A stretch of 64,000 bases of DNA, taken from the IMG/VR virus record IMGVR_UViG_3300035180_001680; one strand, written 5' to 3'. The DNA is from a virus. Its lineage: Duplodnaviria; Caudoviricetes. The translations under genes were made by a program, and so were the position numbers. Each line of letters starts with the position of its first letter. Within the stretch, counting starts at the first letter, position 1. A model generated the notes under the pieces. That model was given only the letters and a program-made list of their open reading frames with translations, did not search any database and was not told the DNA's origin. Positions 40,189-60,143 of this stretch are shown here, piece after piece.

Positions 40189-40555
40189 ATCGAATAAATC
40201 AAGTAGAGGTGATATATTTTATAGGATTCTCAGTTTGGGATGATAAAAATAATTGTTTAAGTTGGAACGATACAATTGAATGGTTCAACATACTTGAAAT
40301 TCAACACGTTCCAGCGATATACGATGGAATATACAACGAAAAAGTGTTCGTTCTGTTGTAGCTGATAATGACTGGTCTAGTCATGAAGGTTATGTTATTA
40401 GAATAGCAGATAGTTTCTCTTATGGAAACTTTCGCAACAATGTTGGGAAAGTTGTCCGGAAGGGACACGTGCAAACAGCAGCACACCACTGGGACTATCA
40501 AAGAATAACACCAAATCTTTTAAAGGTAAAACAATGGACCAAAGAAAAGTTTTAG
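40181..40555 (+). pseudogene. Decayed ATP-dependent RNA ligase (C-terminal half, two frame breaks)
   Basis: Frame A 40209-40361 'YFIGFSVWDDKNNCLSWNDTIEWF...VPAIYDGIYNEK'; frame B to 40555 'EGYVIRIADSF...KVVRKGHVQT...HHW'; motif I (KxDG) absent. Confidence 0.65.
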
Positions 40556-41079
40556 AACGAAATAAAATTGTTGAAATGTATGCAGGCTCACGAGCATACG
40601 GAACAAGTCTTCCTACGTCTGATATTGACATTCGAGGAATTTTTGTTGGGGATCCTGTGAGTATTCGAACACCTTTCTTTCATGTAGATGAAGTGGAACT
40701 TCCAGAAAATGATATTAAATTTTTTGAGTTAAATAAATTTATAAAGTTAGTTGTAGACCAAAATCCAAATGTTGTTGAATTGTTGTGGACAAGTGGACCT
40801 GACATCATCATGTCATCTCCTGCGTACGAATTGCTCCGGCAAGCTAGAGGCAACCTGCTAACATCCAAGGTTGCATTCGCAACTTCTGGATATGCATTTT
40901 CTCAACTTTCCAGAATGAAAAATTCCAAAAAAAATGTAAACAGTTTAGAACCATTAAATGACCTTTGTTCTCTGTTAAAACGAGCTGTCGAAGATGGTAA
41001 TATTGATAAAAACTTTATCGAAGAACACTGTGGAAATAACGTTTTAAATTATATGTTAGAAAATAAATACTTAGTATAA
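40534..41079 (+). CDS. RlaP/NrdC.11-like Pol-beta nucleotidyltransferase, N-terminal fragment
   Basis: 'GSRAYGTSLPTSDIDIRG' signature, 'NPNVVELLW', 'GYAFSQL'. Confidence 0.85.
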   Translation: MDQRKVLERNKIVEMYAGSRAYGTSLPTSDIDIRGIFVGDPVSIRTPFFHVDEVELPENDIKFFELNKFIKLVVDQNPNVVELLWTSGPDIIMSSPAYELLRQARGNLLTSKVAFATSGYAFSQLSRMKNSKKNVNSLEPLNDLCSLLKRAVEDGNIDKNFIEEHCGNNVLNYMLENKYLV

Positions 41080-41115: not shown

Positions 41116-42150
41116 ATGGAAGATATTAACAATAATTTTATTGAGCGAATTAAAAATAGCTCCCTGATACGGAAAGATGGAAAAATTAATTCTCCAGCTA
41201 TAAAAAGTGTGCGTAATACACAATTAATTCAAGAAATAATACAAAGTACTAACTACCTTAACAACGATATTTCTTTTTCTCAGAGATGGTGGCATATACA
41301 AAACGGAAAAAATGTTCCTACATGCACAGAATGTAATAAAGAATTGATGTGGAATACCCGCTTATGTAAGTATCTTCGCTTTTGTAGTCAAAAATGTGCT
41401 GTAACTTCTGAGGAGGCATCGGACCGAACCAGTAAACATTTTATGGGACAAAAATTGACAAAAGAACAAGTACAAAAAAGAAAACAAAAAAGAAAACAAA
41501 ACGGATATTATGTGAACAGAGAAAAAACGATTGAATTATTAAGTCAACAAAAACAAGGAGAAAAAAATCCTCAATATGGAAAAACACCATGGAATTTTGG
41601 ATTGTGTGGGGAATTAAATCCTAACTTCGGAAAAAGGCGACCTGGAACTGGTTTAAAGGGAGAAAAAAATCCTCAATATGGGAAATCCCCATCCAAACAA
41701 GCAGGGAGGGGGATTAATGGAAAATTTAACAATTTACACTTTCGTAGTAGTTTAGAAATGTTATATTTAATGTATTGGTATGAAAACAATGTTAATGTTG
41801 TCAGTGCTGAAAACATTAAGTTTCGGGTCAAGTATATTAATTCCAGTGGAGTTAAACGAACATATTCACCTGATTTTTTTATAAATGAAACTAACACGTT
41901 GGTGGAAATTAAACCAGAAAATCTTCACACAAACGTAGAAGTATTGCAAAAATTTAATACCCTAAAAGAAACTCATACACAATTGGTTTGTGAGTTGGTG
42001 GGGTTTAAACAAATTAGTAATTTTATTCAAACAATTATTAAACAAAACAAGATTGATTATTATATAAAATCTGGTATATTAGAAATTTCTTTATTTCAAC
42101 TTGAAAGGCTAAAACACAATTATGGTGACATCATTAGAGCAACTCTTTAA
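41116..42150 (+). mobile_element. Free-standing homing endonuclease (Zn finger + NUMOD3-like repeats + TnsA-like PD-(D/E)XK)
   Basis: 'CTECNK...FCSQKC'; repeated 'GEKNPQYGK'; 'FRSSLE...YSPDFFI...LVEIKP'; near-consensus late promoter TATAAATG at 41075-41082. Confidence 0.8.
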
Positions 42151-42799
42151 AACATATCAAGTTGAAGCGACAAAAGCGGAACAAATGAAACGCGTATGTA
42201 AGCCAAGCCAAGCAACACACACCAACATTTATTTAACTCAGTCTCTAAACCCATTTCGTGTTAACTTTGATGTAAACTTGGAGGGATACATACTTCAACA
42301 CAGATTTTCAACTTCTTTTGATATAGTAAAAAGTACCAACAAACGAAGTACTATATTTACACGAAGTGGTGATTTAAATGTTGGTGATGGAAAATCCAAT
42401 GGGACAATAATCGGTATATTGTTCTTTGATGAACCATCTTACCAACACGCTAAATCAAATTATGATAAATTTTGGGAATGGAAACTTAATCGAAATTCAT
42501 CTCGATCAGCATTAGAGGAACAATTTGGATACGATACTAAACATGCAATGCATCTTGTGCGTTTGTTGCGGATGGGTCACGAAGCATTAACAGAAGGTGT
42601 GATTAGAGTTCGACGCCCTGATGCTCAAGAATTACTATCAATTCGAGCTGGCGCTTGGACATATGAGCAAGTCGTGGAATATGCAGAACACATGAACGCA
42701 GAAGTGGATAAAGCGCTGAAAACATCGCAACTTCGAAAAGATGTAGATTTAATTCAAGTTACAAAGCTGATTATGGATGTGCAAAATTCGGTCTGGTAA
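42122..42799 (+). CDS. RlaP/NrdC.11-like nucleotidyltransferase, C-terminal fragment
   Basis: 'FWEWKLNRN...FGYDTKHAMHLVRLLRMG...RRPDAQELLSIRAG'. Confidence 0.85.
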   Translation: MVTSLEQLFKTYQVEATKAEQMKRVCKPSQATHTNIYLTQSLNPFRVNFDVNLEGYILQHRFSTSFDIVKSTNKRSTIFTRSGDLNVGDGKSNGTIIGILFFDEPSYQHAKSNYDKFWEWKLNRNSSRSALEEQFGYDTKHAMHLVRLLRMGHEALTEGVIRVRRPDAQELLSIRAGAWTYEQVVEYAEHMNAEVDKALKTSQLRKDVDLIQVTKLIMDVQNSVW

Positions 42800-46382: not shown

Positions 46383-46748
46383 ATGTCGGAACAAAAAGAA
46401 GATACCATTTCATTAAAGGATTTTAAGTCTTGGCTCCAGGGAGTTGAGGATATGCAAGAGGATGATTGGATTCCTAATGCAGTACAGTGGAAAAAAATAA
46501 GATCGAAAATTAATTTACTTGATGATGCGCAACAAGCACCATATAGACAAAACAACTCACCTGTTGTGAATACCCCTCAATATATGAGTCCTATGCCTAT
46601 GCCTATGCCTATGCCATCCCCCTCACAGGGATTCAGTAGTGCTTTTGATACGTATATTCCACCACCTGCAGGTCCTTCGATTTTAGCATCACCCAAAACT
46701 CCAGATATTGATACTTCAGATGGCAGTTATCAAACAAGCTACCTGTAA
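46383..46748 (+). CDS. Hypothetical protein with Pro/Met-rich tail
   Basis: 'LKDFKSWLQGVEDMQ..DW.P...QW.KIR' domain plus an MPMPMPMP microrepeat. Confidence 0.7.
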   Translation: MSEQKEDTISLKDFKSWLQGVEDMQEDDWIPNAVQWKKIRSKINLLDDAQQAPYRQNNSPVVNTPQYMSPMPMPMPMPSPSQGFSSAFDTYIPPPAGPSILASPKTPDIDTSDGSYQTSYL

Positions 46749-47277
46749 AACAAGATTAAAAGATAGAGATTTGTGGTTTGATGGAGACATTTCCGTGTCT
46801 CCCGAATTGCTTGTATCTATGTTAATGAAAGGAATCGATATAAATTCTCTGTTTACAACAGAGATTACACCAGATATTCGTCAATATAACAATCTTGCAA
46901 CTAGACAAATATCAGTTAAGGAAGGAATTAATTCGTTAAACTTTGAGTGGAATTTCGGTAAATCATATCAACAAATCGATATAGAAGACTTTGTTTTAGA
47001 GTGTTTAGAACAAGAGATTCAACATTTTTCAAAAAGTGAACAAAGTGTTCGTATTAAACGAACGATAAAAGAGTTAGAACTGTTTAAACAACACTCGTTT
47101 ATGACTGTTTTGAAATTGATGGTTTTTATAATCGATGTATTTGAACAACAAAATGTTGTGTGGGGAGTTGGACGAGGAAGTAGTGTATCATCATATGTTT
47201 TATATTTAATTGGTGTTCATGATATAGACAGTGTAGAATATAATCTTCCAATTGAAGATTTTTTCCATTATCACTAA
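46708..47277 (+). CDS. DnaE/PolIII-alpha-like fragment 1 (palm N-part)
   Basis: 'RIKRTIKELELF...WGVGRGSSVSSYVLYLIGVHDIDSVEYNLPIEDFF' parallels DnaE '[34 protein letters not shown]'. Start codon uncertain (TTG 46708 or ATG 46720). Confidence 0.85.
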   Translation: MILQMAVIKQATCKTRLKDRDLWFDGDISVSPELLVSMLMKGIDINSLFTTEITPDIRQYNNLATRQISVKEGINSLNFEWNFGKSYQQIDIEDFVLECLEQEIQHFSKSEQSVRIKRTIKELELFKQHSFMTVLKLMVFIIDVFEQQNVVWGVGRGSSVSSYVLYLIGVHDIDSVEYNLPIEDFFHYH

Positions 47278-47310
47278 TTATAAATAAACTGTTAACAGAG
47301 GAGATAAGTT

Positions 47311-47532
47311 ATGGCAAAGCGTATTAGAAGTGCAAAAGGAGAAATGGTTGATTTTGATATTTTAACAATTAAACAACAGATTGCTGCTGGGAAAAGTAAA
47401 GCTGTCGTTGAACCAATTGTTGAAGTAAAGAGACAAGAGAATTTTATTGATAAGAGAAACAAACGTCGCATTGCGAAGGTTGTTAATAAACAACCCGATG
47501 ATGTTACAGAAACCGAACCAACAACTGAATAG
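47311..47532 (+). CDS. Small hypothetical late protein
   Basis: TATAAATA at 47279-47286; GAGGAG RBS. Confidence 0.7.
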   Translation: MAKRIRSAKGEMVDFDILTIKQQIAAGKSKAVVEPIVEVKRQENFIDKRNKRRIAKVVNKQPDDVTETEPTTE

Positions 47533-47542
47533 TGGAGAAAAT

Positions 47543-47830
47543 ATGTTACGACCAATTGGAGATTCAATTATTTTTATATTTGAAGATGATGTAGATGAAA
47601 AAGGTTTTACCAATAAGACATCTGGTGGACTCATTTATAAGTCGTTTGATGTGGATGTTAAATCACCTCGTTGGGGGAAAGTAATTTCAGTTGGAGATAA
47701 AGTTGAAGAAATTCAACCAGGGATGACTGTTTTGATTGAACCACTACGTTGGACTGACGGGTTTAAACATGAAGATGTTAAATATTGGAAGACAGTAGAA
47801 AAAGAGATTATGGCTATAAGAGAAGAGTAA
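47543..47830 (+). CDS. groES: GroES-like co-chaperonin
   Basis: 'LRPIGDSII...KTSGGLI...GKVISVGDKVEEIQPGMTVLI'. Confidence 0.8.
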   Translation: MLRPIGDSIIFIFEDDVDEKGFTNKTSGGLIYKSFDVDVKSPRWGKVISVGDKVEEIQPGMTVLIEPLRWTDGFKHEDVKYWKTVEKEIMAIREE

Positions 47831-47831
47831 C

Positions 47832-48095
47832 ATGGAAAATTTGAATATGATTAACCAACGAACTTGGGAAGAATTCAGAGAAACCAAACTATTGTGGTGG
47901 ATAAATCGTTTGTTACATACTTTCGGTTGGGCTATTGTATATGATTTTGATTCGGACGGTCAACTTTTTTCAGTGTTTCCTGCTCGAGTCGACCCCCGTG
48001 GGTTTACTGAAAAGAGTGAAACAGAAGGTTTTATTGGATTGACTCAGTATATCAAAGACAATATATATACTTTAAATACTAAATGTATGGAATAA
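47832..48095 (+). CDS. Hypothetical protein
   Basis: 'WEEFRETKLLWWINRLLHTFGWAI' conserved-looking small ORF. Confidence 0.65.
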   Translation: MENLNMINQRTWEEFRETKLLWWINRLLHTFGWAIVYDFDSDGQLFSVFPARVDPRGFTEKSETEGFIGLTQYIKDNIYTLNTKCME

Positions 48096-48096
48096 T

Positions 48097-48984
48097 ATGT
48101 TTTTTATCGCAATTTTGTTTATTACTACGTTATCTATAGCTGGGACCGCAGCGTTTTTCAGTGTATATGGATTAGCACAGTTATTCCAGGGTATGATGAT
48201 CCCAGTTATGATTATGGGGGCATCACTAGAAGCAGGTAAACTTGTAACTGCTTCTTTTTTATATAGGTATTGGAATAAACTAAAGATTGGATTTCGGATA
48301 TATCTTGTAACAGCTGTTATAGTGTTAATGGCTGTTACTTCGATGGGTATATTTGGGATGTTGTCGTTGGGATATCAAGCTGATACTCTTCCGTTAAAAC
48401 AAGTCAATTCACAAATTAAATTATTGAATGAAGAGCAAATTCAACTAGCAACTCGTAAACAAGAGATTGATAAACAAATTGAATCACTTCCGGCAGATTA
48501 TGTAAAAGGTCGCCAGAAATTGATGAAAACGTTTGCCCCTGAATTAACTAGAATTAACAATCGGTTACCAGAAATTACAACCGAAACACAAAAATTAAAC
48601 ACACAATTGTTAACAACACAAGCACACGTTGGTCCCATCATATACATTGCTGAGGCGTTTGGTCAAGACGTTGATGATGCTACTAAGTATGTAATTTTAT
48701 TAATTATTGGTGTGTTCGATCCACTTGCAGTTGCATTAACAATCGGTGTTAACGTGGCAATTAGAATTCGAAAAGAAGAAAAACTTGAAGAAAAAATCGA
48801 AGACCAGATTATTGAAACTACAACTGAATCATCACCAACTTATAATGGGTTAACTTCTGATGAAATTAGGTTGTTGGTTGAAGATGAAATTAAAAAATCC
48901 CACCAAGAACAACCTACCAATCATCACCTTGACTCTCTTGCCAAAAAACAACAAATAGTTTCTGATTTAAGGTCATTTTCTTAA
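48097..48984 (+). CDS. Membrane protein (3 N-terminal TM helices, coiled coil, 1 C-terminal TM)
   Basis: Hydrophobic stretches plus 'EAGKLV' and 'FDPLAV' motifs. Confidence 0.7.
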   Translation: MFFIAILFITTLSIAGTAAFFSVYGLAQLFQGMMIPVMIMGASLEAGKLVTASFLYRYWNKLKIGFRIYLVTAVIVLMAVTSMGIFGMLSLGYQADTLPLKQVNSQIKLLNEEQIQLATRKQEIDKQIESLPADYVKGRQKLMKTFAPELTRINNRLPEITTETQKLNTQLLTTQAHVGPIIYIAEAFGQDVDDATKYVILLIIGVFDPLAVALTIGVNVAIRIRKEEKLEEKIEDQIIETTTESSPTYNGLTSDEIRLLVEDEIKKSHQEQPTNHHLDSLAKKQQIVSDLRSFS

Positions 48985-48988
48985 TTTC

Positions 48989-49017
48989 TTGTCATTATTT
49001 AATTCTATGAGTATAAT
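48989..49017 (+). promoter_or_regulatory. sigma70-type promoter
   Basis: TTGTCA-17 nt-TATAAT upstream of the clamp loader. Confidence 0.7.
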
Positions 49018-49038
49018 TATAGAATAATTACAGGAATA

Positions 49039-49971
49039 ATGTTTATGGCACTGGAAAAATTGTGGGTTGAAAAATACAGACCTCAAGTTCTCAAAGAATA
49101 TGTTTTTCATGACGAAAAACAACAACAAGCCTTTTCAAAGATGGTGGAACAAAAATCAATCCCACATCTGCTTTTGTCTGGAGTTCAAGGAACAGGTAAA
49201 ACTACTATTGCCCGAATTTTAATAAACGAATGTGATGTAGAAGAAACAGATATTCTTATTATTAATGCATCTGATGAAAACAGTGTAGATGTTATTCGAG
49301 ACAAGATTAAAGGATTTATTACAACTTACGCTTTGGGGGATTTTAAAGTTATTCTTCTTGAAGAAGCGGACTATATTACTCCAAACGGACAAGCTGTTCT
49401 TCGTGTTTTAATGGAAGAATATTCAAATGAAGCTAGATTTATTTTAACATGCAATTATGAAAACAAAATTATTCCAGCTATTCGTTCCAGGTGTCAACAT
49501 TTTAGATTTAAAGCCGGAGATAGAGATGACATTTCTGAATATGTAGCAACAATTTTAATACACGAAAAAGTAAAATTTGACCTACAAACCCTTGATAAAT
49601 TCATTTCAATTGGATATCCAGACATTCGAAAAATTGTTAACACAATGCAGCAACACACTCATAGTGGTGTTTTAACAATCCCCAGTTCCCAGGGAGAAGT
49701 TGGTGATTACAAATATGAGTTGTTGGATTTGATACAATTAGATAAATGGGTCAAAATGAGAGAAATTGTGTGTGGAAATGTTTCAGGAGAAGAATGGGAA
49801 GACTTATATAGATTTTTATATGAGAATCTTCACAGAGCACCAAAATTTGAAAACACACAAAGGTGGGAAGAAGGGATTATTATTGTAGCTGACCATCTAT
49901 ACAAACACACATTATCTGCAGACCCGGAAATAAATGCAGCTGCAATGTTTATAAAACTTGGACAATTATAA
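49039..49971 (+). CDS. gp44: Clamp-loader AAA+ subunit (gp44/RFC-like)
   Basis: 'WVEKYRP', 'GVQGTGKT', 'INASDE', 'LEEAD', 'IRSRC'. Confidence 0.93.
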   Translation: MFMALEKLWVEKYRPQVLKEYVFHDEKQQQAFSKMVEQKSIPHLLLSGVQGTGKTTIARILINECDVEETDILIINASDENSVDVIRDKIKGFITTYALGDFKVILLEEADYITPNGQAVLRVLMEEYSNEARFILTCNYENKIIPAIRSRCQHFRFKAGDRDDISEYVATILIHEKVKFDLQTLDKFISIGYPDIRKIVNTMQQHTHSGVLTIPSSQGEVGDYKYELLDLIQLDKWVKMREIVCGNVSGEEWEDLYRFLYENLHRAPKFENTQRWEEGIIIVADHLYKHTLSADPEINAAAMFIKLGQL

Positions 49972-49982
49972 GGAGAGTAAAA

Positions 49983-50618
49983 ATGAATAAACCATTAACA
50001 ATAAAAGATATTAAAAGTCTAATGTCTACGTCTAGTATTGACGAGATAACTGCCAATATTGAAAATCGTGAATTTAACGATTTTTATAATAAGTGGTCTG
50101 ATATTACATTTGATAAAAAACAAGAAATGTATGAACAAACAAGCAAACAATCTTTTAGAGATTGTATTGCATCAAGACCTAAAACTGCTGCTAGACCGAT
50201 AACAAGACAAAATACTACATCATCTCATCCGGTGGTGACCAGTGGAACAAGTACAACAGGTAGTTTTTCGTATGAAGATTTTCAACTAGATTTTCAACAA
50301 AGTGTTAAGTATATTGATAACTTTAATCCTTTTGAAGTATCGTATGTTCCACCATCAACAACAAAAGACTTTTTCATTACTTCTCATTCCAATAGTTGGG
50401 GTTCACAAGTAGAAACTCTTCTAAAGGGTCAAACTAAAGATGATAACATTATTCATATTAAAAGTGAAGCAGCACAAGAATTGGATGAATTGCGAACTAT
50501 GCTAAACATCCCACAGGGTGAGTCTGTAGTTTCTTTTATAAAAGAAAAATTTTGTCCAGATTACGAAAAACTACGTTCTGATCCTGAAATTATTTCTTCA
50601 ATAATGAAAACTTTTTAA
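49983..50618 (+). CDS. Hypothetical protein
   Basis: Long ORF with AGGAG RBS. Confidence 0.65.
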   Translation: MNKPLTIKDIKSLMSTSSIDEITANIENREFNDFYNKWSDITFDKKQEMYEQTSKQSFRDCIASRPKTAARPITRQNTTSSHPVVTSGTSTTGSFSYEDFQLDFQQSVKYIDNFNPFEVSYVPPSTTKDFFITSHSNSWGSQVETLLKGQTKDDNIIHIKSEAAQELDELRTMLNIPQGESVVSFIKEKFCPDYEKLRSDPEIISSIMKTF

Positions 50619-50629
50619 TAGGAAATATA

Positions 50630-51019
50630 ATGTCAAGAATGAAAAAGCCCGAAAATGAGACAGAAGAACAAGTTAAGATTCGACATATTTTTGAATCTGT
50701 TTCCAATCATGCGACTCGTAGCGAGAAAACCGCTTGGGAGCGCAAACGGACCAACATGGATAAGTTAATTAAACAATTGAGTCCACTGGAAGACAAGATT
50801 ATGGAGATACGGGCAAAAATGGAACCCATCTATGATGAAATTGCTGAACTTCGAACGTTAATGGTTGAAGAGTGTATTCATCCGTTTGATATGTTGCTGT
50901 ATAATGATGACCAAACTATTCGTTGTAAATTTTGTGAGAAATTGTTAAAACCAACAGAAACAACCGAACGAATAACCGAAACAGCATTGGATATTCCAAA
51001 TGGAACCAAAAAAGTATAA
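50630..51019 (+). CDS. Hypothetical coiled-coil protein with possible Zn ribbon
   Basis: 'ECIHP...RCKFCEK'. Confidence 0.65.
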   Translation: MSRMKKPENETEEQVKIRHIFESVSNHATRSEKTAWERKRTNMDKLIKQLSPLEDKIMEIRAKMEPIYDEIAELRTLMVEECIHPFDMLLYNDDQTIRCKFCEKLLKPTETTERITETALDIPNGTKKV

Positions 51020-51467
51020 ACTTGATATCTTTACTACGTTACAACAGATAAATCTCAAACGAGTATTCTTTTATAATGATTTAACTGATGAAGAACGAAA
51101 AGGATTTCAACCATTAGTAACAATGAGGTGGATGTCTGGAACGAAGTCTTCGTTCCAGATTATTCTGTTGAATGAATTGGTTAATCCTTTCGTGTTTTCA
51201 TTATCTAATCATAAAGAGTTGTTGTATAAATTAATGACCATCTGTGCAACCAAACCACAACATTACAGTTGGTTAAAGATGCAAGATAAACAACACAAAT
51301 ATAAACAGAGCTTGAGTCTTATAAGTAAACAATATGGCTACAGTTCTACACAGGCTAAAGAGGTGTTTCCATTGTTTTCAACGGAAGATATCCTCGATAT
51401 GGCCGAAACTCAAGGATTACAAAAAGAAGAATTAGTTAAACTAAAAGCAGAACTAAAGACGCGATGA
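51000..51467 (+). CDS. Clamp-loader small subunit (gp62-like)
   Basis: 'DIFTTLQQIN...F.PLVTMRWMS...NELVN...LLYKL...YS..QAKE'. Confidence 0.65.
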   Translation: MEPKKYKLDIFTTLQQINLKRVFFYNDLTDEERKGFQPLVTMRWMSGTKSSFQIILLNELVNPFVFSLSNHKELLYKLMTICATKPQHYSWLKMQDKQHKYKQSLSLISKQYGYSSTQAKEVFPLFSTEDILDMAETQGLQKEELVKLKAELKTR

Positions 51468-52141
51468 AAGAAAAACCCTTTGAATGTTCGTTTTGTGGAG
51501 CTTCATTCGTTCACGAGACAAGGTATCTGAAACATAAGTGTGAGAAGATGCAACGTCATGAAGATATTAAAAGTACAATCGGGCAAAGTGCATACATGCT
51601 TTATCAAATGTGGTTTACAACAAAAAAGAAAACTGCCCCATCTATTGAGTCTTTCATAAATTCAAGGTATTACAAACCATTTGTGAGATTTGCAGAGTTC
51701 GTAAAACGTGTTCGTTTACCTGAACCCGAATTATACATTAAATTAATGAATGAAAACGGTGTATCACCTTCCATGTGGACTATGAATGAGATGTATGGAC
51801 AGTTCCTTGAATTTCTTGACCGGAAATTATCTCCCAAAAAACAAGCTGGTATTACTATCCGAACTATGGAAAAAGTTGCGGATGCTGCAGAATGTGAAAT
51901 ATATCAAATATTTGACGTATTAACTGGTTCGGATATTATCCAATTAATCAGAGAACGGAAATTATCTCCTTGGGTTTTATTGAGAAGTAGGAAGTTTATG
52001 GTTAAGGTTGAATTGATGTCTAAGGAAGAACAACAAATTGTTGAAAGCCTAATTCGTGTAGATTATTGGAAACAAAAGTTTCAAAACAGACAACCCGAAA
52101 AAGCTTATATGGATAAATTAGTTAAAGAGTTGGACTTATAA
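51464..52141 (+). CDS. N-terminal zinc-finger protein, function unknown
   Basis: 'FECSFCGASF...YLKHKC'. Confidence 0.65.
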   Translation: MKEKPFECSFCGASFVHETRYLKHKCEKMQRHEDIKSTIGQSAYMLYQMWFTTKKKTAPSIESFINSRYYKPFVRFAEFVKRVRLPEPELYIKLMNENGVSPSMWTMNEMYGQFLEFLDRKLSPKKQAGITIRTMEKVADAAECEIYQIFDVLTGSDIIQLIRERKLSPWVLLRSRKFMVKVELMSKEEQQIVESLIRVDYWKQKFQNRQPEKAYMDKLVKELDL

Positions 52142-52182
52142 ATAGTAAATATGATATGCAGCAATTAATGTGAGGAATTCAA

Positions 52183-53709
52183 ATGGCTGGAACTATTTAC
52201 ACAATCGATTTTACTAATTCATCTGTAGACCCAACAAAAGCACCGTTTCAAATAAACCCTGGTGGCTTTGATGGACCAGCAGGTACAAATACTCACACAT
52301 CTCTTAATTTGTTTGGCGAAGGCTTCCTTCAATATGGGCAACGAGCAAATGAGAATTTTTTGTGGCTTTTGGAAAATTTTGCAAGTCCAGGTTGGCCACC
52401 AAATCCCACTATCGGACAACTTTGGTTTGACACAAGTGTAAATTTATTAAAAGTTTTTGACATGAGTCATAGTTGGAGTGTTGTCGCCGGTGGTGTTCCT
52501 CCTCCTAAAACATTCCTTATTGTTAGTGCAAACACTGGAACGTCTACATTCTACGTAAGCGGTGACGCAACACCGTATTTAACAGCTGGAGGACAGTTTA
52601 TAGTTCAAGGCGGAGCAAATGCTGGAACGTACACTATTTCATCTGCTGTGGGGTCGGTAACATATATCTCGGGGACAGATCAAACAGCGATTGTTGTAAC
52701 CTCAACAGTTCCTTCTTCTGCTGGTGGTGGAACGATCGTTTCTGCACCCTCTCCAACATCTCCAGTTACAGGTGAACTTTGGTTCAACGTGATTGAAGGT
52801 TCGTTGTATGTATATACAGGAGCTGCCTGGTCTAAGATTTTTTCAGGAAATGCAACTGGTGATATTGATATGTTAAACACACATAAAGTTATCAACCTTC
52901 CAGATCCAACAAATACCGATGATGCTGCTAACAAGAATTATGTTGATACACAAATATCAACATTATCATCTTCACTTTCATCTAGCAATCTGGGACTTCA
53001 GTCTCAAATAGATCAAAAGGTTACCAAAACAGGTGACACTATGACGGGGACTTTGGTGTTTTCTTCTGGTGGAATTAGTTTAAACAACGCAACGAATATT
53101 AATTTGATTGGTGGTAGTTTGGCTGTTAGTAATAATGGCAGCGTTTCCTTGTCAGTTGGTTCTATATTGACACTCGGCCAAGATCCTTCTTCACCATTGG
53201 AAGCTGCAACAAAACAATATGTCGATAGTCGACTTTATTCTTTACCCCAAGCAACGACTTCTGCGATAGGTGGAGTTGTATTAGCGACAGGAAGTGAAGC
53301 CATAGCCGGAACAAACACACAAAAAGCTATAACCCCTGTAGCTTTACAATCAGTTACAAATTTAATAACAACAGAGATTACATCTCGGGTGCCTTACGAT
53401 TTGTTAGTAGTTCCTTATTCTTCTTCGATTTCTTTCGACTTTGCAACTTCAAGAAACTTTTCTATAACTTTAACAGGACAAGTATCTATTCTCAGTCCAA
53501 CAAACCTAATAACAGGACAATCTGGGGTCATTTATATTATTCAAGATGGAACTGGAAGTAGAATGGCTTCTTTTTCAACAAGCACATGGAAGTTTGAAAA
53601 CGGAACAGTTCCAGCACTTTCAACAGCGGCTGGATCAATTGATGTGTTAGTGTATGAAGTCTACAACACTAACACAATTGTAGCTTCATTACTTAAAAAG
53701 GTTAGTTAA
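52183..53709 (+). CDS. Tail-fibre protein, cassette A
   Basis: Attachment domain 'G.G..QYG...NENF..LLENFA...P.NPTIGQLW', 'ATKQYVD' repeats; late promoter at 52137-52144. Confidence 0.8.
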   Translation: MAGTIYTIDFTNSSVDPTKAPFQINPGGFDGPAGTNTHTSLNLFGEGFLQYGQRANENFLWLLENFASPGWPPNPTIGQLWFDTSVNLLKVFDMSHSWSVVAGGVPPPKTFLIVSANTGTSTFYVSGDATPYLTAGGQFIVQGGANAGTYTISSAVGSVTYISGTDQTAIVVTSTVPSSAGGGTIVSAPSPTSPVTGELWFNVIEGSLYVYTGAAWSKIFSGNATGDIDMLNTHKVINLPDPTNTDDAANKNYVDTQISTLSSSLSSSNLGLQSQIDQKVTKTGDTMTGTLVFSSGGISLNNATNINLIGGSLAVSNNGSVSLSVGSILTLGQDPSSPLEAATKQYVDSRLYSLPQATTSAIGGVVLATGSEAIAGTNTQKAITPVALQSVTNLITTEITSRVPYDLLVVPYSSSISFDFATSRNFSITLTGQVSILSPTNLITGQSGVIYIIQDGTGSRMASFSTSTWKFENGTVPALSTAAGSIDVLVYEVYNTNTIVASLLKKVS

Positions 53710-53710
53710 T

Positions 53711-54199
53711 ATGAGATATGCTTTTATTGAAAACAACAAAATTGCCCAGGTATTTGAGACTGGTCAGGCATTCACGTTAAATGGTTTTGGCTATCCACCC
53801 AATTGGTTAGATTTATCTACGTATTCGGAAAAAACAGAAATTGGTTTAGTTGAACTTACAGAATCAGTTCGTCCTAATCCAACATACCATTCTTGTTCAG
53901 AGAGTTTTGACATAGTAAATGGAGTTCCTTCTTCGGTTTGGGTGTGTACTGATTTGGATGTTACCACATTAAAAACAGAATTAACGAATATTGTAGATAA
54001 AGTGATGTTTAATTTACTATCACCAACAGATTGGTATGTAACTAGATTTACTGAAGTTGGAACCGCGATCCCACCAGAGATAACTGCAAATCGAGCTGCT
54101 ATTCGTTCTGAGTATGCTTCACTTAAACAGCAAATCGCTTCTTCAGTAACTATATCTGACCTTGAAACCGTTTGTGTAAATTTACCTACAATATTATGA
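53711..54199 (+). CDS. Tail-fibre assembly protein, cassette A
   Basis: 'YPPNWLDL...LLSPTDWYVTRFTEVGTAIP...RAAIR'; paralog of 56701. Confidence 0.65.
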   Translation: MRYAFIENNKIAQVFETGQAFTLNGFGYPPNWLDLSTYSEKTEIGLVELTESVRPNPTYHSCSESFDIVNGVPSSVWVCTDLDVTTLKTELTNIVDKVMFNLLSPTDWYVTRFTEVGTAIPPEITANRAAIRSEYASLKQQIASSVTISDLETVCVNLPTIL

Positions 54200-54597
54200 A
54201 AAAATTATTACTTCGTCGTCATTCCACGTTAATTGCTGGAGGACCATTGATTTATACATATACAATCCCCAATAACGCTGGGGGAACAGGTGAGGGGTTT
54301 TATAGAACCATTGCTTCTTGGACGAATTCGACTGGTTTATCGGGGCACGTGAATGTAAATGGAACTTTTGCTCCAGCTACATGCGAAAAGGTTGTTGATT
54401 GGCAGATATTAGTTGATGGTGTATCTCAAGGTGCTCATCAAGTATATAACAGCGGGAGCTGTACTGCCGCTGCTTGGTCATTCAACCAAGATGTTCCTGT
54501 ATTGGACACGAGTGTTGTTGTTCTTCAGGTATACATATGGGGAGCTTATAATTCAGATCGTATCGGTTCTGGAATATTTAACATAAACGCTCACTAA
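54196..54597 (+). CDS. Putative fibre-tip adhesin, cassette A
   Basis: Starts MKKLLLRRH (cf. 57171 MRKLLLHS); beta-rich body. Confidence 0.5.
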   Translation: MKKLLLRRHSTLIAGGPLIYTYTIPNNAGGTGEGFYRTIASWTNSTGLSGHVNVNGTFAPATCEKVVDWQILVDGVSQGAHQVYNSGSCTAAAWSFNQDVPVLDTSVVVLQVYIWGAYNSDRIGSGIFNINAH

Positions 54598-54649
54598 TTA
54601 AAATAGTTCCCATAAATACTTTAAATTAATACAAAAAAGGAACGATTTT

Positions 54650-56287
54650 ATGGCACATTTAATTAATTTCACGGATTCGTCTATTGCTCCGGAAAAATCA
54701 GCCTTCGCCATACCAGAATATAAAACGGAAGGTCCTACCTCTCCACTTAACTCAACGCCAAATTCAGGAACACCTCCGTTTAATTCTGCAAAGGCATCTA
54801 CGACACTATTGTTAGTCGGTAAAGGTGTTCCTAACTACGGTGAAATCATTCAAAATAATTTAGTTCATCTTCTTGAGAATTTTGCAAGTAATGGAGTACC
54901 TCCTGTGTATCCCACAATTGGACAATTGTGGTATAATTATCAAACAAAAGAACTTTCTCTTTATAAAAATACGAATGTTTGGGATGGAATATTGAGTTTG
55001 TCGGGTGGAATTATGACAGGGCCCTTACATTTATCAGGTTCTCCTGTTACTGACGACCAAGCAGTTAATAAAAAATATGTGGACAATCTCGCCTCTTTAT
55101 ATGTTTTGTTGGATGGAACAAATTCAATGACAGGTCTTTTAACGTTAAGTGGTGATCCAACAACAAACTTACAGGCAGCTACGAAACAATATGTTGATAA
55201 TAGTTTGATATCTCACGAGAGCGATCTTGCGTTACATTTAACACCAACCGAGAACGTGTGGATCGATTCGATTACTGCAACATCAGCAGAAGTAAATTAC
55301 TTATCGGGGTCAACAAGCAACATTCAATTTCAGTTAAATCAAAAAGTTGCAAAAACAGGAGACACAATGACGGGATTATTAGTCTTGTCGGGTAATCCTG
55401 TTGACAATTTAGGTGCGGCGCCTAAACAATATGTTGATACTTCTTTAACAACTGCTTTATCTCAATATTTGCCGTTATCTGGTGGAATCCAAATGACAGG
55501 ATTTTTTGATTTAGTTGGGAATCCCGTAAGTGCACTACAGCCTGCTACAAAGCAATATGTAGACGCTGTTGCAGGAGGGGGAGGAGGGGGAGATGGTGTT
55601 GTTACAGGAGGTTCAATGGATCCACCAACGGGTATTCTTACTCTATCACGTAGTGTTGGTGGAAATGTTTTAATAAATAACATTGCTGCCTTTACTCATA
55701 CACACACTGCATCCGATGTTTCATATGTTATTTTATCAAATACGGGAATTTTAAACTATTCTTACAGTGTTTCACCGAATTATCCAAACATAACGGTTTT
55801 GGATGCTTTGTCGAGTTTTGATCGATATGCAGCAAGCACAATATCACCTACATTCTCAGGTACAGTTACTCTTGGTCAAGATCCAGTTTTACCTCTTGAA
55901 GCAGCTACGAAACAATATGTTGATACTTCTTTAACAACTACTTTATCTCAATATTTGCCGTTATCTGGTGGAATCCAAATGACAGGATTTTTTGATTTAG
56001 TTGGGAATCCCGTAAGTGCACTACAGCCTGCTACAAAGCAATATACCGACAACAAAACGACGATTCAACGAACTCTTATAACTTCAACTGGACAAACGGT
56101 ATTTGATTTTACTACATCATCACCTAACATATCATATGTTGTTGGTTCAAACAATTTGTGGGTCTTTGTTAATGGAATTAAAGCATACATAACCGATTCA
56201 TATTTAGAAACATCAACGACTTCAGTAACGTTTACTTATACTGTTCCTGTGGGAGTAAATGTTGAGTTCCTGGTTTTTGGAATATAA
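54650..56287 (+). CDS. Tail-fibre protein, cassette B
   Basis: N-terminus paralogous to 52183; seven 'A(T/P/V)N/K.YVD'-type repeats; CATAAATA at 54611-54618. Confidence 0.8.
   Translation: MAHLINFTDSSIAPEKSAFAIPEYKTEGPTSPLNSTPNSGTPPFNSAKASTTLLLVGKGVPNYGEIIQNNLVHLLENFASNGVPPVYPTIGQLWYNYQTKELSLYKNTNVWDGILSLSGGIMTGPLHLSGSPVTDDQAVNKKYVDNLASLYVLLDGTNSMTGLLTLSGDPTTNLQAATKQYVDNSLISHESDLALHLTPTENVWIDSITATSAEVNYLSGSTSNIQFQLNQKVAKTGDTMTGLLVLSGNPVDNLGAAPKQYVDTSLTTALSQYLPLSGGIQMTGFFDLVGNPVSALQPATKQYVDAVAGGGGGGDGVVTGGSMDPPTGILTLSRSVGGNVLINNIAAFTHTHTASDVSYVILSNTGILNYSYSVSPNYPNITVLDALSSFDRYAASTISPTFSGTVTLGQDPVLPLEAATKQYVDTSLTTTLSQYLPLSGGIQMTGFFDLVGNPVSALQPATKQYTDNKTTIQRTLITSTGQTVFDFTTSSPNISYVVGSNNLWVFVNGIKAYITDSYLETSTTSVTFTYTVPVGVNVEFLVFGI
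55424..56044 (+). repeat. 135-nt direct repeat (55424-55558 and 55910-56044), one mismatch
   Basis: Identical except GCT vs ACT (Ala/Thr). Confidence 0.92.
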
Positions 56288-56303
56288 CAAGGAGTTTTAA
56301 TAA

Positions 56304-56699
56304 ATGACTATTGCAACAATAAAAGCATTTCAAGTAGACACAAATGAAATAGTTGATGTTCCAACGTTTAACTCTCGAGTTCCTTGGAATATGTTAACAT
56401 TACCGTATTCAACTTTATTGGTTCCTGATTTTACATTGTCACGCAACTTTATCGTAACATTGACAGGAAATACAACATTTGATAATCCATTAAATGTTAC
56501 CCCTGGACAGTCGGGAGTAATTTATATTGTTCAAGATGAAGTTGGAAGTCGTTCTGCGGCATTTAATAGTTTTTGGAGTTTTGAGGAGGGGGTTGCACCC
56601 ACGTTGTCAACACTTCCTGGTGTAGTCGACGTATTAGTATATGAAGTTTACACTACTACCAGAGTAGTAGCAACGCTGTTAAGAAGGGTTGGAGGTTAA
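56304..56699 (+). CDS. Stand-alone paralog of the C-terminal domain of 52183
   Basis: 'SRVP...SRNF..TLTG...GQSGVIYI.QD..GSR...DVLVYEVY'. Confidence 0.8.
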   Translation: MTIATIKAFQVDTNEIVDVPTFNSRVPWNMLTLPYSTLLVPDFTLSRNFIVTLTGNTTFDNPLNVTPGQSGVIYIVQDEVGSRSAAFNSFWSFEEGVAPTLSTLPGVVDVLVYEVYTTTRVVATLLRRVGG

Positions 56700-56700
56700 T

Positions 56701-57174
56701 ATGAATTATGTCGTAATTGAAAATGGTGTTATTGTAATGGAACTTATTAGTGGTGTTCCGTTTACACTTCACGGTATTCAGTACCCAAACAATTGGCTTG
56801 AACTTTCAACTGATCTTGAAAAAACAGATCGGGGAATTGTTCTTGTCAATGAAGTTGCTCAACCTAACACCTTTTTCTATGATGTATCAGGATCAGTTCA
56901 ATTAATTGGAGGAGTTCCAACGCGTGTGTGGCAAACAACAGATAAAGATCTGGTAACGTTACAACAACAGTTAACTGAAATTGTAAAAAATAAAGCAAAC
57001 ACTGATTTGCGTTCTACTGATTGGTATGTTACTAGATTTGTTGAAATGGGAACATCCATTCCAAGTGATATATCTAATCAACGAAACAATATTCGAACAA
57101 CCTTAAATAACAATGAAACTAATATTACAAATGCAACATCGGTTAGCATTCTTGAAAGCTTGAATTTAGTATGA
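56701..57174 (+). CDS. Tail-fibre assembly protein, cassette B
   Basis: 'YPNNWLEL...LRSTDWYVTRFVEMGTSIP'. Confidence 0.65.
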   Translation: MNYVVIENGVIVMELISGVPFTLHGIQYPNNWLELSTDLEKTDRGIVLVNEVAQPNTFFYDVSGSVQLIGGVPTRVWQTTDKDLVTLQQQLTEIVKNKANTDLRSTDWYVTRFVEMGTSIPSDISNQRNNIRTTLNNNETNITNATSVSILESLNLV

Positions 57175-57809
57175 GAAAATTATTACTTCATTCCCCGAGA
57201 AGATTAATTTATATTGGAACGGATTCAACAACAAGTGATTTATCTACATATTCATTTACATTTGTGATTCCGTATGGTGGATTGGTAATAGCCACAATGG
57301 CAATTGGGATATTGACAGGAGATGGTTCACAAGAGTTTACACAAACGACTATCGGTGGTGTTCCAGTTACCCCCTTGGTGAATTTTTCAAGTACAGAACC
57401 AACAACAATATTTACTAGAAGAATAATATCTGGTGGTTCAGTTACTGTTACAGGAACTGTTCCTGTAACAGGTGTTAGGTCTTCCGTAGGAATATTTTTA
57501 TTGTCTAATAACAACAGTGATGTTCCAGTGTTTACAGGTTCTAATATAACACCAGGAACTTCTGTTTCTTTAACAACTTCTGCGTCTGGTGTTGGAGTAT
57601 TTTTCTCCACCTCGGATAATCTAGCAGAAACCATTAATTGGACACCAAACGTAACAGAACAATATGAACATCTTTTAACAGATGGGACGGGATTCAGTTC
57701 TCATGCAGCGGCTACAACAAACGGAATCATGCCAACAGGTAATGTTGTAACAGCAAGTGGAACTGGATCTACTCATACTAGAAATTTGGTTGGAGCTATT
57801 TGGATCTAA
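57171..57809 (+). CDS. Putative fibre-tip adhesin, cassette B
   Basis: MRKLLL start; Thr/Gly-rich beta-sandwich-like body. Confidence 0.55.
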   Translation: MRKLLLHSPRRLIYIGTDSTTSDLSTYSFTFVIPYGGLVIATMAIGILTGDGSQEFTQTTIGGVPVTPLVNFSSTEPTTIFTRRIISGGSVTVTGTVPVTGVRSSVGIFLLSNNNSDVPVFTGSNITPGTSVSLTTSASGVGVFFSTSDNLAETINWTPNVTEQYEHLLTDGTGFSSHAAATTNGIMPTGNVVTASGTGSTHTRNLVGAIWI

Positions 57810-57824
57810 TAACCTGGAGAAAAG

Positions 57825-58187
57825 TTGGTGTTTGTTGAAAACGAAATTCAAAATTTGAAATTCTATGATATGTTTGGTGGTTCCACTAGAATTAACTCAA
57901 ATGATATTATATTCAAATTTGTGTGTGTTCGAAAATTTTCTTTGTTGAATAATGTGGATGGTTCAATGGCTATTATTGATGAATTAACCACGTCCCCTTT
58001 TGTTGTTAGCCTTCAGAAGAATGGTTATCAATTTGCAACAATTACCTTTAATTCCAATTCACAAGCGGGGGTGTTTGAAGGTATACCCGTGAGTTTTGAA
58101 ATTGGTGACATTTTATCTGTTGTTGCTCCTGTATTATACGAATCAACAAATTCAGGAATTTGGTTTACTATTTCTGGAGTATTATAA
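57825..58187 (+). CDS. Hypothetical tail-associated protein
   Basis: GTG start after a GGAG RBS. Confidence 0.55.
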   Translation: MVFVENEIQNLKFYDMFGGSTRINSNDIIFKFVCVRKFSLLNNVDGSMAIIDELTTSPFVVSLQKNGYQFATITFNSNSQAGVFEGIPVSFEIGDILSVVAPVLYESTNSGIWFTISGVL

Positions 58188-58726
58188 TGCGATATATAAT
58201 AACAAAAAATAATACTATCCTACAAATCCTTCAAAAAGAACCTTTGTTTATTCCATCCACCACAACTTGTTTAGTTTATAATGGAAGCGAACTTGATGAA
58301 AGTTTATTCGTTGAAGACAATCAAATTAAAATAAAAGAATTTAAAATACAGCAGTATCAACATGAACAATTTGAACTTATACAAACCAGAATAGATGAGT
58401 TGCGTTCTTTATTTGCCTCTGTTATTTCGAGTCAAAATGATGTTTATTGGGAAAAAACACAGGAAGCAATAGATTATGCATCGTTAGGGTTCCCCGAAGA
58501 TATCTCAAATTATCCATTTATTGCCGTTGATATCGAATTAACAGGTAAAACAGGAAAAGAGGTAACACAGAATATTTTAACTAAACGAAAACAGTGGTTA
58601 AGTATAGCTGCACAAACAGAAAAAATTAGAAAACAAGCGTATAGCAAAATTTTTGTTTGTGAAACTAAAGAATGTGTCGATAATGTTATACAAAATATAT
58701 TTTTACAATTAGATAGTCTTTCTTGA
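58187..58726 (+). CDS. Tail-fibre accessory-like protein
   Basis: 'Y.EK..EA..Y...YPF...ILTKRKQW...E.IR' pattern. Confidence 0.55.
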   Translation: MRYIITKNNTILQILQKEPLFIPSTTTCLVYNGSELDESLFVEDNQIKIKEFKIQQYQHEQFELIQTRIDELRSLFASVISSQNDVYWEKTQEAIDYASLGFPEDISNYPFIAVDIELTGKTGKEVTQNILTKRKQWLSIAAQTEKIRKQAYSKIFVCETKECVDNVIQNIFLQLDSLS

Positions 58727-58751
58727 CAATTTTTTCAATATCAGGTATAAT
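58723..58751 (+). promoter_or_regulatory. Perfect sigma70 consensus promoter
   Basis: TTGACA-17 nt-TATAAT, 6 nt before the ATG at 58758. Confidence 0.85.
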
Positions 58752-58757
58752 TAAAAT

Positions 58758-59342
58758 ATGCCTGATATTGATATTGATACTCAAACCTCATTCGACGCAC
58801 AGAGTGTTTTTAAAACTTCTGTTGCTGCTTCTATGGTAAAAAATGAAGAACTTGTACGACATCCAGTTGGAACGTATTTTCAAGAAATTCCGAAAGATAA
58901 AGTAACAGGTTTATCAGCTATACCATATAAAGATGCTGAAGACTTGGGATATTTTAAAGTTGATTTCTTGCACCTGTCATTACTTGATTATTTTGAAAAC
59001 AAGAATGAAATTAGAGTGTTATTGAAAAAAGAACCAAATTGGGATTTATTGAAGATTCCATCTGTTGTTAGTAAACTGTTTCACTTATCGAACCACTATG
59101 ATGTTGTTTCTAGAATTGCCCCAAGGTCCATCCAAGAGTTGGCTGACGTTCTCGCTTTAATTCGTCCTGGGAAAAAATACTTGTTAGAAGCTTATATTAA
59201 AGACAGAGATATTGTTCGCGATGAGTTGTATAAAACACCAACTAAAAAGAATGCCATTTGGTTTAAAAGAAGTCATTCTGTTGCTTACGCCCACAATATT
59301 GTACTCCAACTCCATTTAATAAACGTAGGAATTGAAATTTAG
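58758..59342 (+). CDS. DnaE/PolIII-alpha-like fragment 2 (catalytic palm + partial fingers)
   Basis: Begins 'MPDIDID'; then 'RHPVG', 'FKVDFL', 'PRSIQELADVLALIRPG', 'FKRSHSVAY'. Confidence 0.88.
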   Translation: MPDIDIDTQTSFDAQSVFKTSVAASMVKNEELVRHPVGTYFQEIPKDKVTGLSAIPYKDAEDLGYFKVDFLHLSLLDYFENKNEIRVLLKKEPNWDLLKIPSVVSKLFHLSNHYDVVSRIAPRSIQELADVLALIRPGKKYLLEAYIKDRDIVRDELYKTPTKKNAIWFKRSHSVAYAHNIVLQLHLINVGIEI

Positions 59343-59371
59343 TATAAATATATTAAATCTTGGAGAATATA

Positions 59372-59761
59372 ATGCGTGTCATGCCAACGGTTAACTTAAC
59401 CAATCACCAAAAAATGCTACTTGCTAAAATAGCAAATGCACCAGAATCCCCTAATGGTGGAAAAAAAATTCATATTGATAGTGATAAATTGAGTAGTGCA
59501 AAAGAATTTTTGTTGAAACTTAATTTAATTACATTTGATACAGAAACCGAATTAATGAATCTTACAGATACAGCAATAGTTCTAATGCAAGAGGAAGGCA
59601 TTTTGGATGAAACAGGACAACTTACAGATATAGGTAAACAATATGCAAAAGGAGAAACTCCTTCCACCACTGAAGAATCTGCTTCTCCTCAAAATCAACA
59701 ATTGTCAAACGAAACTTTTCACATTTCGTTTAAAAATTATCTTATGTTGCTCGAAAGGTAA
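59372..59761 (+). CDS. Hypothetical late protein
   Basis: TATAAATA at 59343-59350; GGAG RBS. Confidence 0.65.
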   Translation: MRVMPTVNLTNHQKMLLAKIANAPESPNGGKKIHIDSDKLSSAKEFLLKLNLITFDTETELMNLTDTAIVLMQEEGILDETGQLTDIGKQYAKGETPSTTEESASPQNQQLSNETFHISFKNYLMLLER

Positions 59762-60143
59762 TAATGTTACTCGGGGAAACTCTTCGTTTCCTACGAATCT
59801 TTTGAATGTTATCCATATCAAAGGAAGGAATTGGGCCAATAACTCGGGACACGGAATCCACAGCATACGAACGATATATTTTGGATGCTTCGGATGTTAA
59901 TCCTTTTTTTGCAAACTCTATTGATACAGGATATGGAGGATTTTTACTATTCCACCACTCATTTGCAACATTAATAATTTCAATTTCATCTACGTTTGCT
60001 ACTTCACAAAAGTCCAATACATATGCTTTTATTGTTTTTTTGTCACAATTGTCGATTATTGTTAATAAATGTTTTTCGTTAAACTGAATCAGTGTGATGA
60101 ATGAATAACCGTTATACTCTTCTGGATGTGTTTCTACTATCAT
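59742..60143 (-). CDS. Hypothetical protein
   Basis: Minus-strand late promoter (TATTTATA on + strand, 60173-60180) upstream. Confidence 0.7.
   Translation of the reverse strand: MIVETHPEEYNGYSFITLIQFNEKHLLTIIDNCDKKTIKAYVLDFCEVANVDEIEIINVANEWWNSKNPPYPVSIEFAKKGLTSEASKIYRSYAVDSVSRVIGPIPSFDMDNIQKIRRKRRVSPSNIITFRAT

Follow-up and report, generated by a model that had tools for sequence, protein, structure and literature searches.

A split, minimal DNA polymerase III alpha of an uncultivated phage, compared with its relatives and with bacterial DnaE

A split, minimal form of DNA polymerase III alpha (Pol III alpha) was described by sequence analysis in the group 2.2 jumbo phages by Iyer, Anantharaman, Krishnan, Burroughs and Aravind (2021, Viruses 13:63, PMC7824862). 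In the passages of that paper found by term search, an N-terminal, nucleoside triphosphate (NTP)-binding half and a C-terminal, Mg- and template-binding half are stand-alone proteins of distant genes, synthesis of one strand or repair is the suggested role, and the split minimal form is proposed as a model of the ancestral bacterial replicase. The present study concerns two open reading frames (ORFs) in a stretch of 64,000 nucleotides (the window) of tailed-virus DNA, IMG/VR record IMGVR_UViG_3300035180_001680, derived from a phage that has not been cultivated and that was detected in samples of sediment and of microbial mats. The two products, called here fragment 1 and fragment 2, had been read from the sequence alone as a two-subunit polymerase of the DnaE family (the original prediction), with the reservation that such genes might already be known. 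They are: the pair belongs to the split Pol III alpha family described in PMC7824862, and since the central discovery has been published, the contribution of the window is one of detail, the type of system being known.

As far as the located passages describe the published system, the locus is alike in several respects. Its proteins fall into the PHROG families of the RaK2, PBECO4, Atu_ph07 and XacN1 proteins and give tblastn matches to those phages, a family B DNA polymerase (PolB) is encoded alongside, no other Pol III domains were found, and the background of single-stranded DNA-binding protein (SSB), helicase and clamp-loader genes is T4-like, that of the published system comprising a gp32-type SSB, a UvsW-type helicase and an RFC-type clamp loader. 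It differs in the presence of a fibre-gene cassette, which here widens the distance between the two genes to 11.5 kb. Three features considered below, namely a promoter in leaderless register, an extra N-terminal domain of fragment 1, and single-chain forms, go unmentioned in the passages of PMC7824862 found by term search. In a separate study, PF07733, the Pfam family matched by fragment 1, was noted to mark a single cluster of marine jumbo phages (Weinheimer and Aylward 2022, PMC9123017).

Correspondence of the two halves to bacterial DnaE

The sequence of E. coli K-12 dnaE was fetched, and family profiles of 50 sequences each were aligned to it and to solved structures, including the Pol III alpha of Thermus aquaticus (Taq). 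Residues 88-185 of fragment 1 aligned to E. coli DnaE 286-393, with R152-G153-S154 falling on R362-G363-S364, so that the GRGSS close to the end of fragment 1 is the GRGS motif of DnaE. Fragment 2 resumes at the next motif, its M1-P2-D3-x-D5-x-D7 (MPDIDID) corresponding to DnaE M399-P400-D401-x-D403-x-D405, in which x is F and V. Further along, K67 and D69 correspond to K553 and D555 of E. coli (K616 and D618 of Taq), R-P-G at 136-138 to the finger motif FRPG, and R171-S172-H173...Y177 to K758-S759-H760...Y764. Besides the catalytic Asp motif, fragment 2 thus holds the third Asp and has fingers that are shortened but retain R136-P137-G138 and S172-H173...Y177. The Gly-Ser motif, the catalytic Asp and Lys, and the finger residues were invariant or nearly so in the 50-sequence alignments; the nucleotide-binding motif G151-R152-G153-S154-S155 was invariant in the fragment 1 family, as were D3, D5 and D69 in that of fragment 2. 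The original prediction had recognised the GRGSS end, the MPDIDID start and all three catalytic Asp equivalents (in DxD and KVDFL), and it was borne out on each of these motifs, including the conservation of the Asp residues in homologues.

Fragment 1 ends at about DnaE residue 395 and fragment 2 begins at 399, leaving about three residues unaccounted for, and the residue map therefore places the cut in the loop between a palm helix and the catalytic-Asp strand. A link between the halves by an intein or trans-splicing was considered and rejected, as neither ORF matches an intein and the ends abut within about three residues in DnaE numbering.

In profile searches, fragment 1 matched PF07733 (DNA_pol3_alpha, the Pol III alpha "NTPase" palm) above the curated cut-off (E 5.9e-12, profile positions 12-95) and phrog_11127 (E 1.7e-38), while fragment 2 matched phrog_11778 (E 1.9e-63); both PHROGs are small phage families annotated "DNA polymerase". 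The only Pfam match of fragment 2 was sub-threshold (PF17657, Pol III fingers, E 1.3e-3), and phmmer with fragment 2 alone gave no match among PDB sequences, so that a profile was needed for this comparison. Fragment 1 had been given as an ORF of 189 amino acids (aa) beginning at 46708. The ORF is real, but its mechanical TTG start at that position runs into the upstream gene, and the ATG at 46720 is favoured by homologues of 185 aa and by the family profile. Likewise, the reduced size claimed for the pair stands, but the exact total is 379 aa, not about 383, against 1,160 aa for E. coli DnaE.

Between D7 and R34-H35-P36-V37-G38 of fragment 2 there are only 26 residues (about 27 had been claimed), compared with about 110 in E. 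coli DnaE, where the thumb of about 80 aa normally occupies this interval; the thumb is therefore absent. Fragment 2 then terminates about 20 residues past the Ser-His...Tyr finger motif and is without the clamp-binding/HhH and OB domains, which lie C-terminal to the fingers. The PHP domain (PF02811), which was scored in 14 of 14 control genomes, had no match in five complete relatives, and none in the 178.8-kb contig that contains the window and represents about 52% of a genome. The HhH domain (PF14579, HHH_6) had no match in the same five relatives, and the contig contained no second PF07733 or PF17657 piece. The predicted loss of PHP, clamp-binding and OB domains and shortening of the fingers are therefore upheld, and no conventional full DnaE could be rebuilt from other fragments, since searches of the contig and the five complete relatives found no PHP or HhH piece.

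Bacterial DnaE (E. coli 2HNH and 5FKV, Thermus aquaticus 3E0D, M. tuberculosis 5LEW) shares with the phage halves the Pol-beta-like palm, the Gly-Ser motif, D401/D403/D555, K553 and the finger motifs. The phage halves, in contrast, have no PHP, thumb, clamp-binding/HhH or OB domain and no tau-binding tail, their fingers comprise about 120 residues where those of DnaE comprise about 350, and fragment 1 has about 72 extra residues at its N-terminus. PolC of Firmicutes (Geobacillus kaustophilus 3F2B) also has the C-family palm and fingers, but its one chain of about 1,400 aa includes an inserted exonuclease as well as OB and PHP domains, and it is less like the phage halves than DnaE. To our knowledge, all other known C-family polymerases are large bacterial replicases that exceed 1,000 aa.

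The AlphaFold2 models of fragments 1 and 2 had mean predicted local distance difference test (pLDDT) values of 87 and 81. In its model, fragment 1 consists of a small, family-specific alpha/beta domain (residues 1-72) and the initial part of the DnaE palm (residues 73-185, E. coli 273-396). Foldseek searches of the PDB placed DnaE and PolC at the top for both halves, with weak E values of 0.01-0.5. VIA-align superposed fragment 1 residues 73-185 on E. coli DnaE 273-396 (Z 11.4, root-mean-square deviation 3.3 over 109 residues) and fragment 2 residues 66-194 on the palm and fingers of DnaE (Z up to 9.5), the 13 top matches of the latter being all C-family and the next match scoring 3.8. The next unrelated chains reached Z 2.8 and 3.8, and the PolC matches Z 7.5-8.2. 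An exhaustive comparison with 48,161 chains yielded only seven matches with Z of at least 5, all of them C-family polymerases, and the corresponding AlphaFold DB clusters held only family members and DnaE pieces. For residues 1-72 of fragment 1, no convincing fold or family match was obtained (Atlas feature scores at most 0.84, TM at most 0.52, VIA matches only at Z 2.1-2.2), and none of the displayed matches of the exhaustive comparison spanned them.

Folded alone, fragment 2 was disordered at residues 55-69, around the third Asp. The two halves co-fold as a predicted pair, as had been anticipated, with an ipSAE of 0.91 against 0.13 for the best control. In calibration, 58 of 80 solved complexes attained this mark, as did two of 110 mismatched pairs, counts that hold only roughly here because custom alignments were used. 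Three runs shared at least 93% of contacts, with a partner pLDDT of at least 92. The tightest contacts join fragment 1 residues 147-149, in the strand before the Gly-Ser motif, to residues 6-9 of fragment 2, in the Asp strand, and further tight contacts join the conserved L18-W19-x-D21-G22 of the fragment 1 N-terminal domain to A54-I55-P56 of fragment 2. The score measures the compatibility of the modelled halves and is not a demonstration of binding; judged from these models, the halves very probably bind each other physically.

Two metagenomic proteins carry both modules in one chain, in the expected order and with the catalytic residues intact, each having been seen on one contig only. In P0302 (375 aa), the family of fragment 1 aligns over residues 8-183 (hhalign 99.5%, E 4e-22), and that of fragment 2 over residues 191-374; P0368 (336 aa) is a single chain without the N-terminal domain. 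A search with P0368 for further single-chain forms returned only relatives of split length. In a quick tree with an arbitrary root, in which members of about 190 aa were taken as split forms from their length, P0302 and P0368 nested separately among such forms of the fragment 2 family (SH-aLRT 92-93). This nesting hints that the single-chain forms are secondary fusions, but is only suggestive. The gene for P0368 has a 4-nt overlap with the end of a gene for a 552-aa PF03090 "Replicase" of the primase-polymerase type (L103:1516-4181, on a 7,992-bp JGI metagenome contig); these two genes, seen together once, may make up the replication module of a small replicon. In the literature searched, the rare single-chain forms, and the coupling of one to a primase-type replicase, appear to be new.

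Distribution, selection and promoter of the pair

In a set of 5.8 billion proteins, the families of the two halves have 2,927 and 857 stand-alone members, uniform in length at about 180-200 aa, and 536 clusters at 50% identity were counted. The closest database proteins share at most 61% identity with fragment 1 and at most 82% with fragment 2. Within IMG/VR, a single-protein scan found no relative, and an alignment-based scan found 128. Both halves were present in all ten genomes tested, in keeping with the co-occurrence that had been proposed. Five of these were complete phage genomes (RaK2, PBECO4, Atu_ph07, the 141-kb phage Slicko01, and Vibrio phage 2.275.O), where a profile search found fragment 1 once each, and five were large IMG/VR contigs without fragment 1 within 10 kb of fragment 2, where it was found elsewhere on the contig. 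Among phage records searched by tblastn, fragment 2 was found in 96 and the RaK2-type fragment 1 in 93, with an equal spread of genera. The presence of the family in a phage of 141 kb (Slicko01) appears to be new to the searched literature.

In all ten genomes the halves were separate genes and never adjacent, and the break point in the loop was identical in every genome tested. The start-to-start spacing was 1,250 bp in one locus (L058), with a median of 6.7 kb and a maximum of 182 kb (Atu_ph07), and gene order differs in RaK2-type phages. Both halves are under purifying selection, dN/dS across relatives being about 0.16-0.19 in fragment 1 and 0.03-0.075 in fragment 2.

The perfect sigma-70-type promoter that had been noticed 6 nt before the ATG of fragment 2 is exact (Table 1), and the window contains no other perfect consensus, the number expected by chance being 0.10. 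No Shine-Dalgarno sequence precedes fragment 2, which is also the sole ORF start in the 178.8-kb contig with two or fewer mismatches in this register. A promoter in the same register (at most three mismatches, with the end of the -10 element 5-8 nt, mostly 6, before the ATG) was found in 19 of 55 distinct relatives (35%), compared with 1.9% of 1,418 control ORF starts. The Shine-Dalgarno sequence was absent from all 19 relatives having the promoter register, but the association between the two was not significant (Shine-Dalgarno present in 0/19 versus 7/36, Fisher p = 0.08). XacN1 has the promoter in the register seen here, whereas RaK2, PBECO4, Slicko01, Atu_ph07 and the Vibrio phage have instead 4-15 extra N-terminal residues. 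No promoter comparable to that of fragment 2 was found at fragment 1. With the promoter ending 6 nt from the ATG and the usual spacing, transcription would therefore start on the A of the ATG and give a leaderless mRNA; as read from the sequence, a leaderless fragment 2 transcript is reasonably likely. A conserved promoter in leaderless register appears to be new to the literature searched, and such an arrangement, if leaderless, would be a clear case for a phage replication gene.

Proposed role and alternatives

In the proposed mechanism, the two halves would complete a single beta-sheet across the chains and so form one Pol-beta-like nucleotidyltransferase palm. Chain 1 would contribute helices and the strand ending in the Gly-Ser motif, which would hold the triphosphate of the incoming nucleotide, and chain 2 the three metal-binding carboxylates, the catalytic Lys, and short fingers bearing the nucleotide-contacting Lys/Arg-Ser-His...Tyr motif. 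Because residues are supplied by both chains, the active site would be composite and present only in the heterodimer. The conserved residues suggest that such a heterodimer is likely to be catalytically active. A processive replicase is improbable, since the PHP, thumb, clamp-binding/HhH and OB domains are lacking. A family B replicase, for which the original prediction had suggested a search, is indeed encoded on the same contig and in all five complete relatives. The pair may be a distributive, template-directed enzyme beside the family B replicase, probably engaged in primer extension, gap filling or repair, and a heterodimer of this kind, with a composite active site and the role of an accessory DNA polymerase, is the slightly favoured interpretation. 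Homology and fold, residue conservation, purifying selection, the co-occurrence of the halves, the single-chain forms, the predicted complex, the position among replication genes and the promoter register speak for it, and the published reading is in agreement. That it is a DNA polymerase and not some other transferase is, by itself, given a little better than an even chance. A strong early promoter belonging to the C-terminal half alone would give it a leaderless mRNA, and the N-terminal half would be transcribed together with the upstream helicase and recombination genes.

A second C-family polymerase working beside a main replicase has a parallel in Bacillus subtilis, where DnaE, beside PolC, elongates primers that the main replicase then takes over. 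A miniature Pol III beside a family B replicase, and the replicase-coupled P0368, may be analogous. However, the DnaE of B. subtilis is full-length and clamp-binding, the phage enzyme lacks those domains, and a use of RNA primers by the phage enzyme is conjectural. An extended proposal, speculative and as a whole rather unlikely, is that the two-chain C-family polymerase, with its active site formed only in the heterodimer, is the enzyme that T4-related giant phages devote to primer extension (Pol-alpha-like) or to gap filling, with a hand-over to the family B replicase, that the XacN1-like sub-clade makes the catalytic half from a leaderless early mRNA, and that the single-chain core serves small replicons with a primase-type replicase.

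Several observations weigh against the accessory-polymerase interpretation. The thumb and HhH domains, with which DnaE holds the primer-template, are absent, so that DNA binding is only putative and another transferase chemistry is conceivable. The position of E. coli R390 is occupied by Asp in this family. The promoter-to-ATG register occurs in only about a third of relatives, and RaK2-type phages carry the N-terminal extension. The complex score may derive in part from the memory of the model for solved single-chain DnaE structures and so possibly reflects likeness to DnaE, because the halves belong to one fold that has been solved as a single chain. Finally, literature searches found no report of biochemical activity for any member of the family, in agreement with the original prediction, which knew of none.

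The main rival explanation is that the heterodimer, though active as a nucleotidyltransferase, is no templated DNA polymerase and serves instead in end-tailing, de novo priming or the synthesis of signalling nucleotides. Only the core is left, the duplex-gripping thumb, HhH and OB domains being missing, and Pol-beta-fold enzymes of such size are commonly non-templated. Yet the dNTP- and template-contacting finger motifs of DnaE, RPG and Lys/Arg-Ser-His...Tyr, including the equivalent of H760, are invariant, the structural neighbours are only C-family polymerases, the genes lie inside a replication module, and one single-chain relative (P0368) is coupled to a primase-type replicase; on balance, a non-templated enzyme is considered unlikely. 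Less probable still, and by a wide measure, is a polymerase specialised for modified phage DNA, such as DNA with 7-deazaguanine nucleotides that the family B enzyme would handle poorly. At least 93 cultured phages, spread over many genera, keep the pair, and DpdA-type systems modify DNA after replication, which would make a special polymerase unnecessary.

A total of 379 aa in two pieces, compared with 1,160 aa in E. coli DnaE, might also suggest the remnants of a captured host dnaE in decay, or catalytically dead proteins with a structural or regulatory role. This explanation is extremely improbable, and the pseudogene reading is effectively refuted: the catalytic residues are all invariant, the dN/dS values are 0.03-0.19, there are thousands of intact homologues of equal length, and the same clean break point within the loop occurs in every genome tested. 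The claim that this is a selected pair and not a product of decay agrees with these results and with the co-occurrence of the halves in ten of ten genomes.

If the accessory-polymerase interpretation is correct, the two-chain enzyme of about 380 aa would be the smallest known C-family polymerase core and would show the minimum needed for C-family catalysis. It would also bear on the origin of the bacterial replicase, since Iyer et al., in the passages located, propose the split form as the ancestral model. The pair is conserved in many jumbo phages of Klebsiella, E. coli, Pseudomonas, Erwinia and Xanthomonas that are therapeutic candidates, and these also encode a family B polymerase.

Genomic setting

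Both genes lie within a T4-like replication/recombination module, the features of which are collected in Table 1, and the gene order is the same in XacN1. In most relatives there is no fibre cassette at this place, and the clamp-loader genes are only 1-4 kb upstream of fragment 2, for which reason the fibre block looks inserted into the replication module. That the whole 11.5-kb gap is a mobile insertion was rejected, as the conserved clamp-loader genes lie inside it and only the fibre block looks added. In this block of fibre-like genes, two large ORFs (508 and 545 aa) look like paralogues, and smaller ORFs come after each one.

Table 1. Positions of the two polymerase halves, the promoter and neighbouring genes (window coordinates unless a contig is named).
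Feature	Position	Strand	Remarks
SSB	38035		Upstream of fragment 1
UvsX-like recombinase	39052		Upstream of fragment 1
Helicase	43806		Upstream of fragment 1
Fragment 1 ORF, 185 aa	46720..47277	+	PF07733 and phrog_11127 matches
GroES/gp31-like co-chaperonin	47447-47830		Just downstream of fragment 1; PF00166 E 4.8e-4, phrog_931/phrog_3188
Large clamp-loader subunit	49039		Between the fragments
Small clamp-loader subunit	51000		Between the fragments
Fibre-gene cassette	52183-58187		Between clamp-loader genes and fragment 2
Perfect sigma-70-type promoter	58723..58751	+	TTGACA (58723-58728), 17 nt, TATAAT (58746-58751), 6 nt, ATG 58758
Fragment 2 ORF, 194 aa	58758..59342	+	Starts exactly at the catalytic Asp motif; phrog_11778
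133-aa ORF, phrog_11637	59742-60143	-	Just after fragment 2
Family B DNA polymerase, 1,264 aa, exonuclease domain	Contig G000:C1:172689-176483 (L104:1190-4984)		Outside the window

Some of the neighbouring genes recur in related loci. The GroES/gp31-like gene is kept downstream of fragment 1 in 37 of 80 related loci. On the other side of the module, the phrog_11637 gene gave an opposite-strand tblastn match downstream of fragment 2 in 62 of 80 IMG/VR loci, at a median offset of about 1.2 kb, and a similar small gene on the opposite strand is annotated after fragment 2 in RaK2, PBECO4, Atu_ph07, Slicko01 and the Vibrio phage. Another ORF of 133 aa (59360-59761), directly downstream of fragment 2, is conserved in 29 of 80 loci.

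The polymerase domain of the family B enzyme is interrupted at about residues 658-995 by an intein, which has a LAGLIDADG homing-endonuclease domain. A second nucleotidyltransferase in the window (phrog_388) is likewise found in two ORFs, with profile positions 30-186 at 40534-41079 and 191-334 at 42122-42799, and an ORF of 356 aa lies between them.

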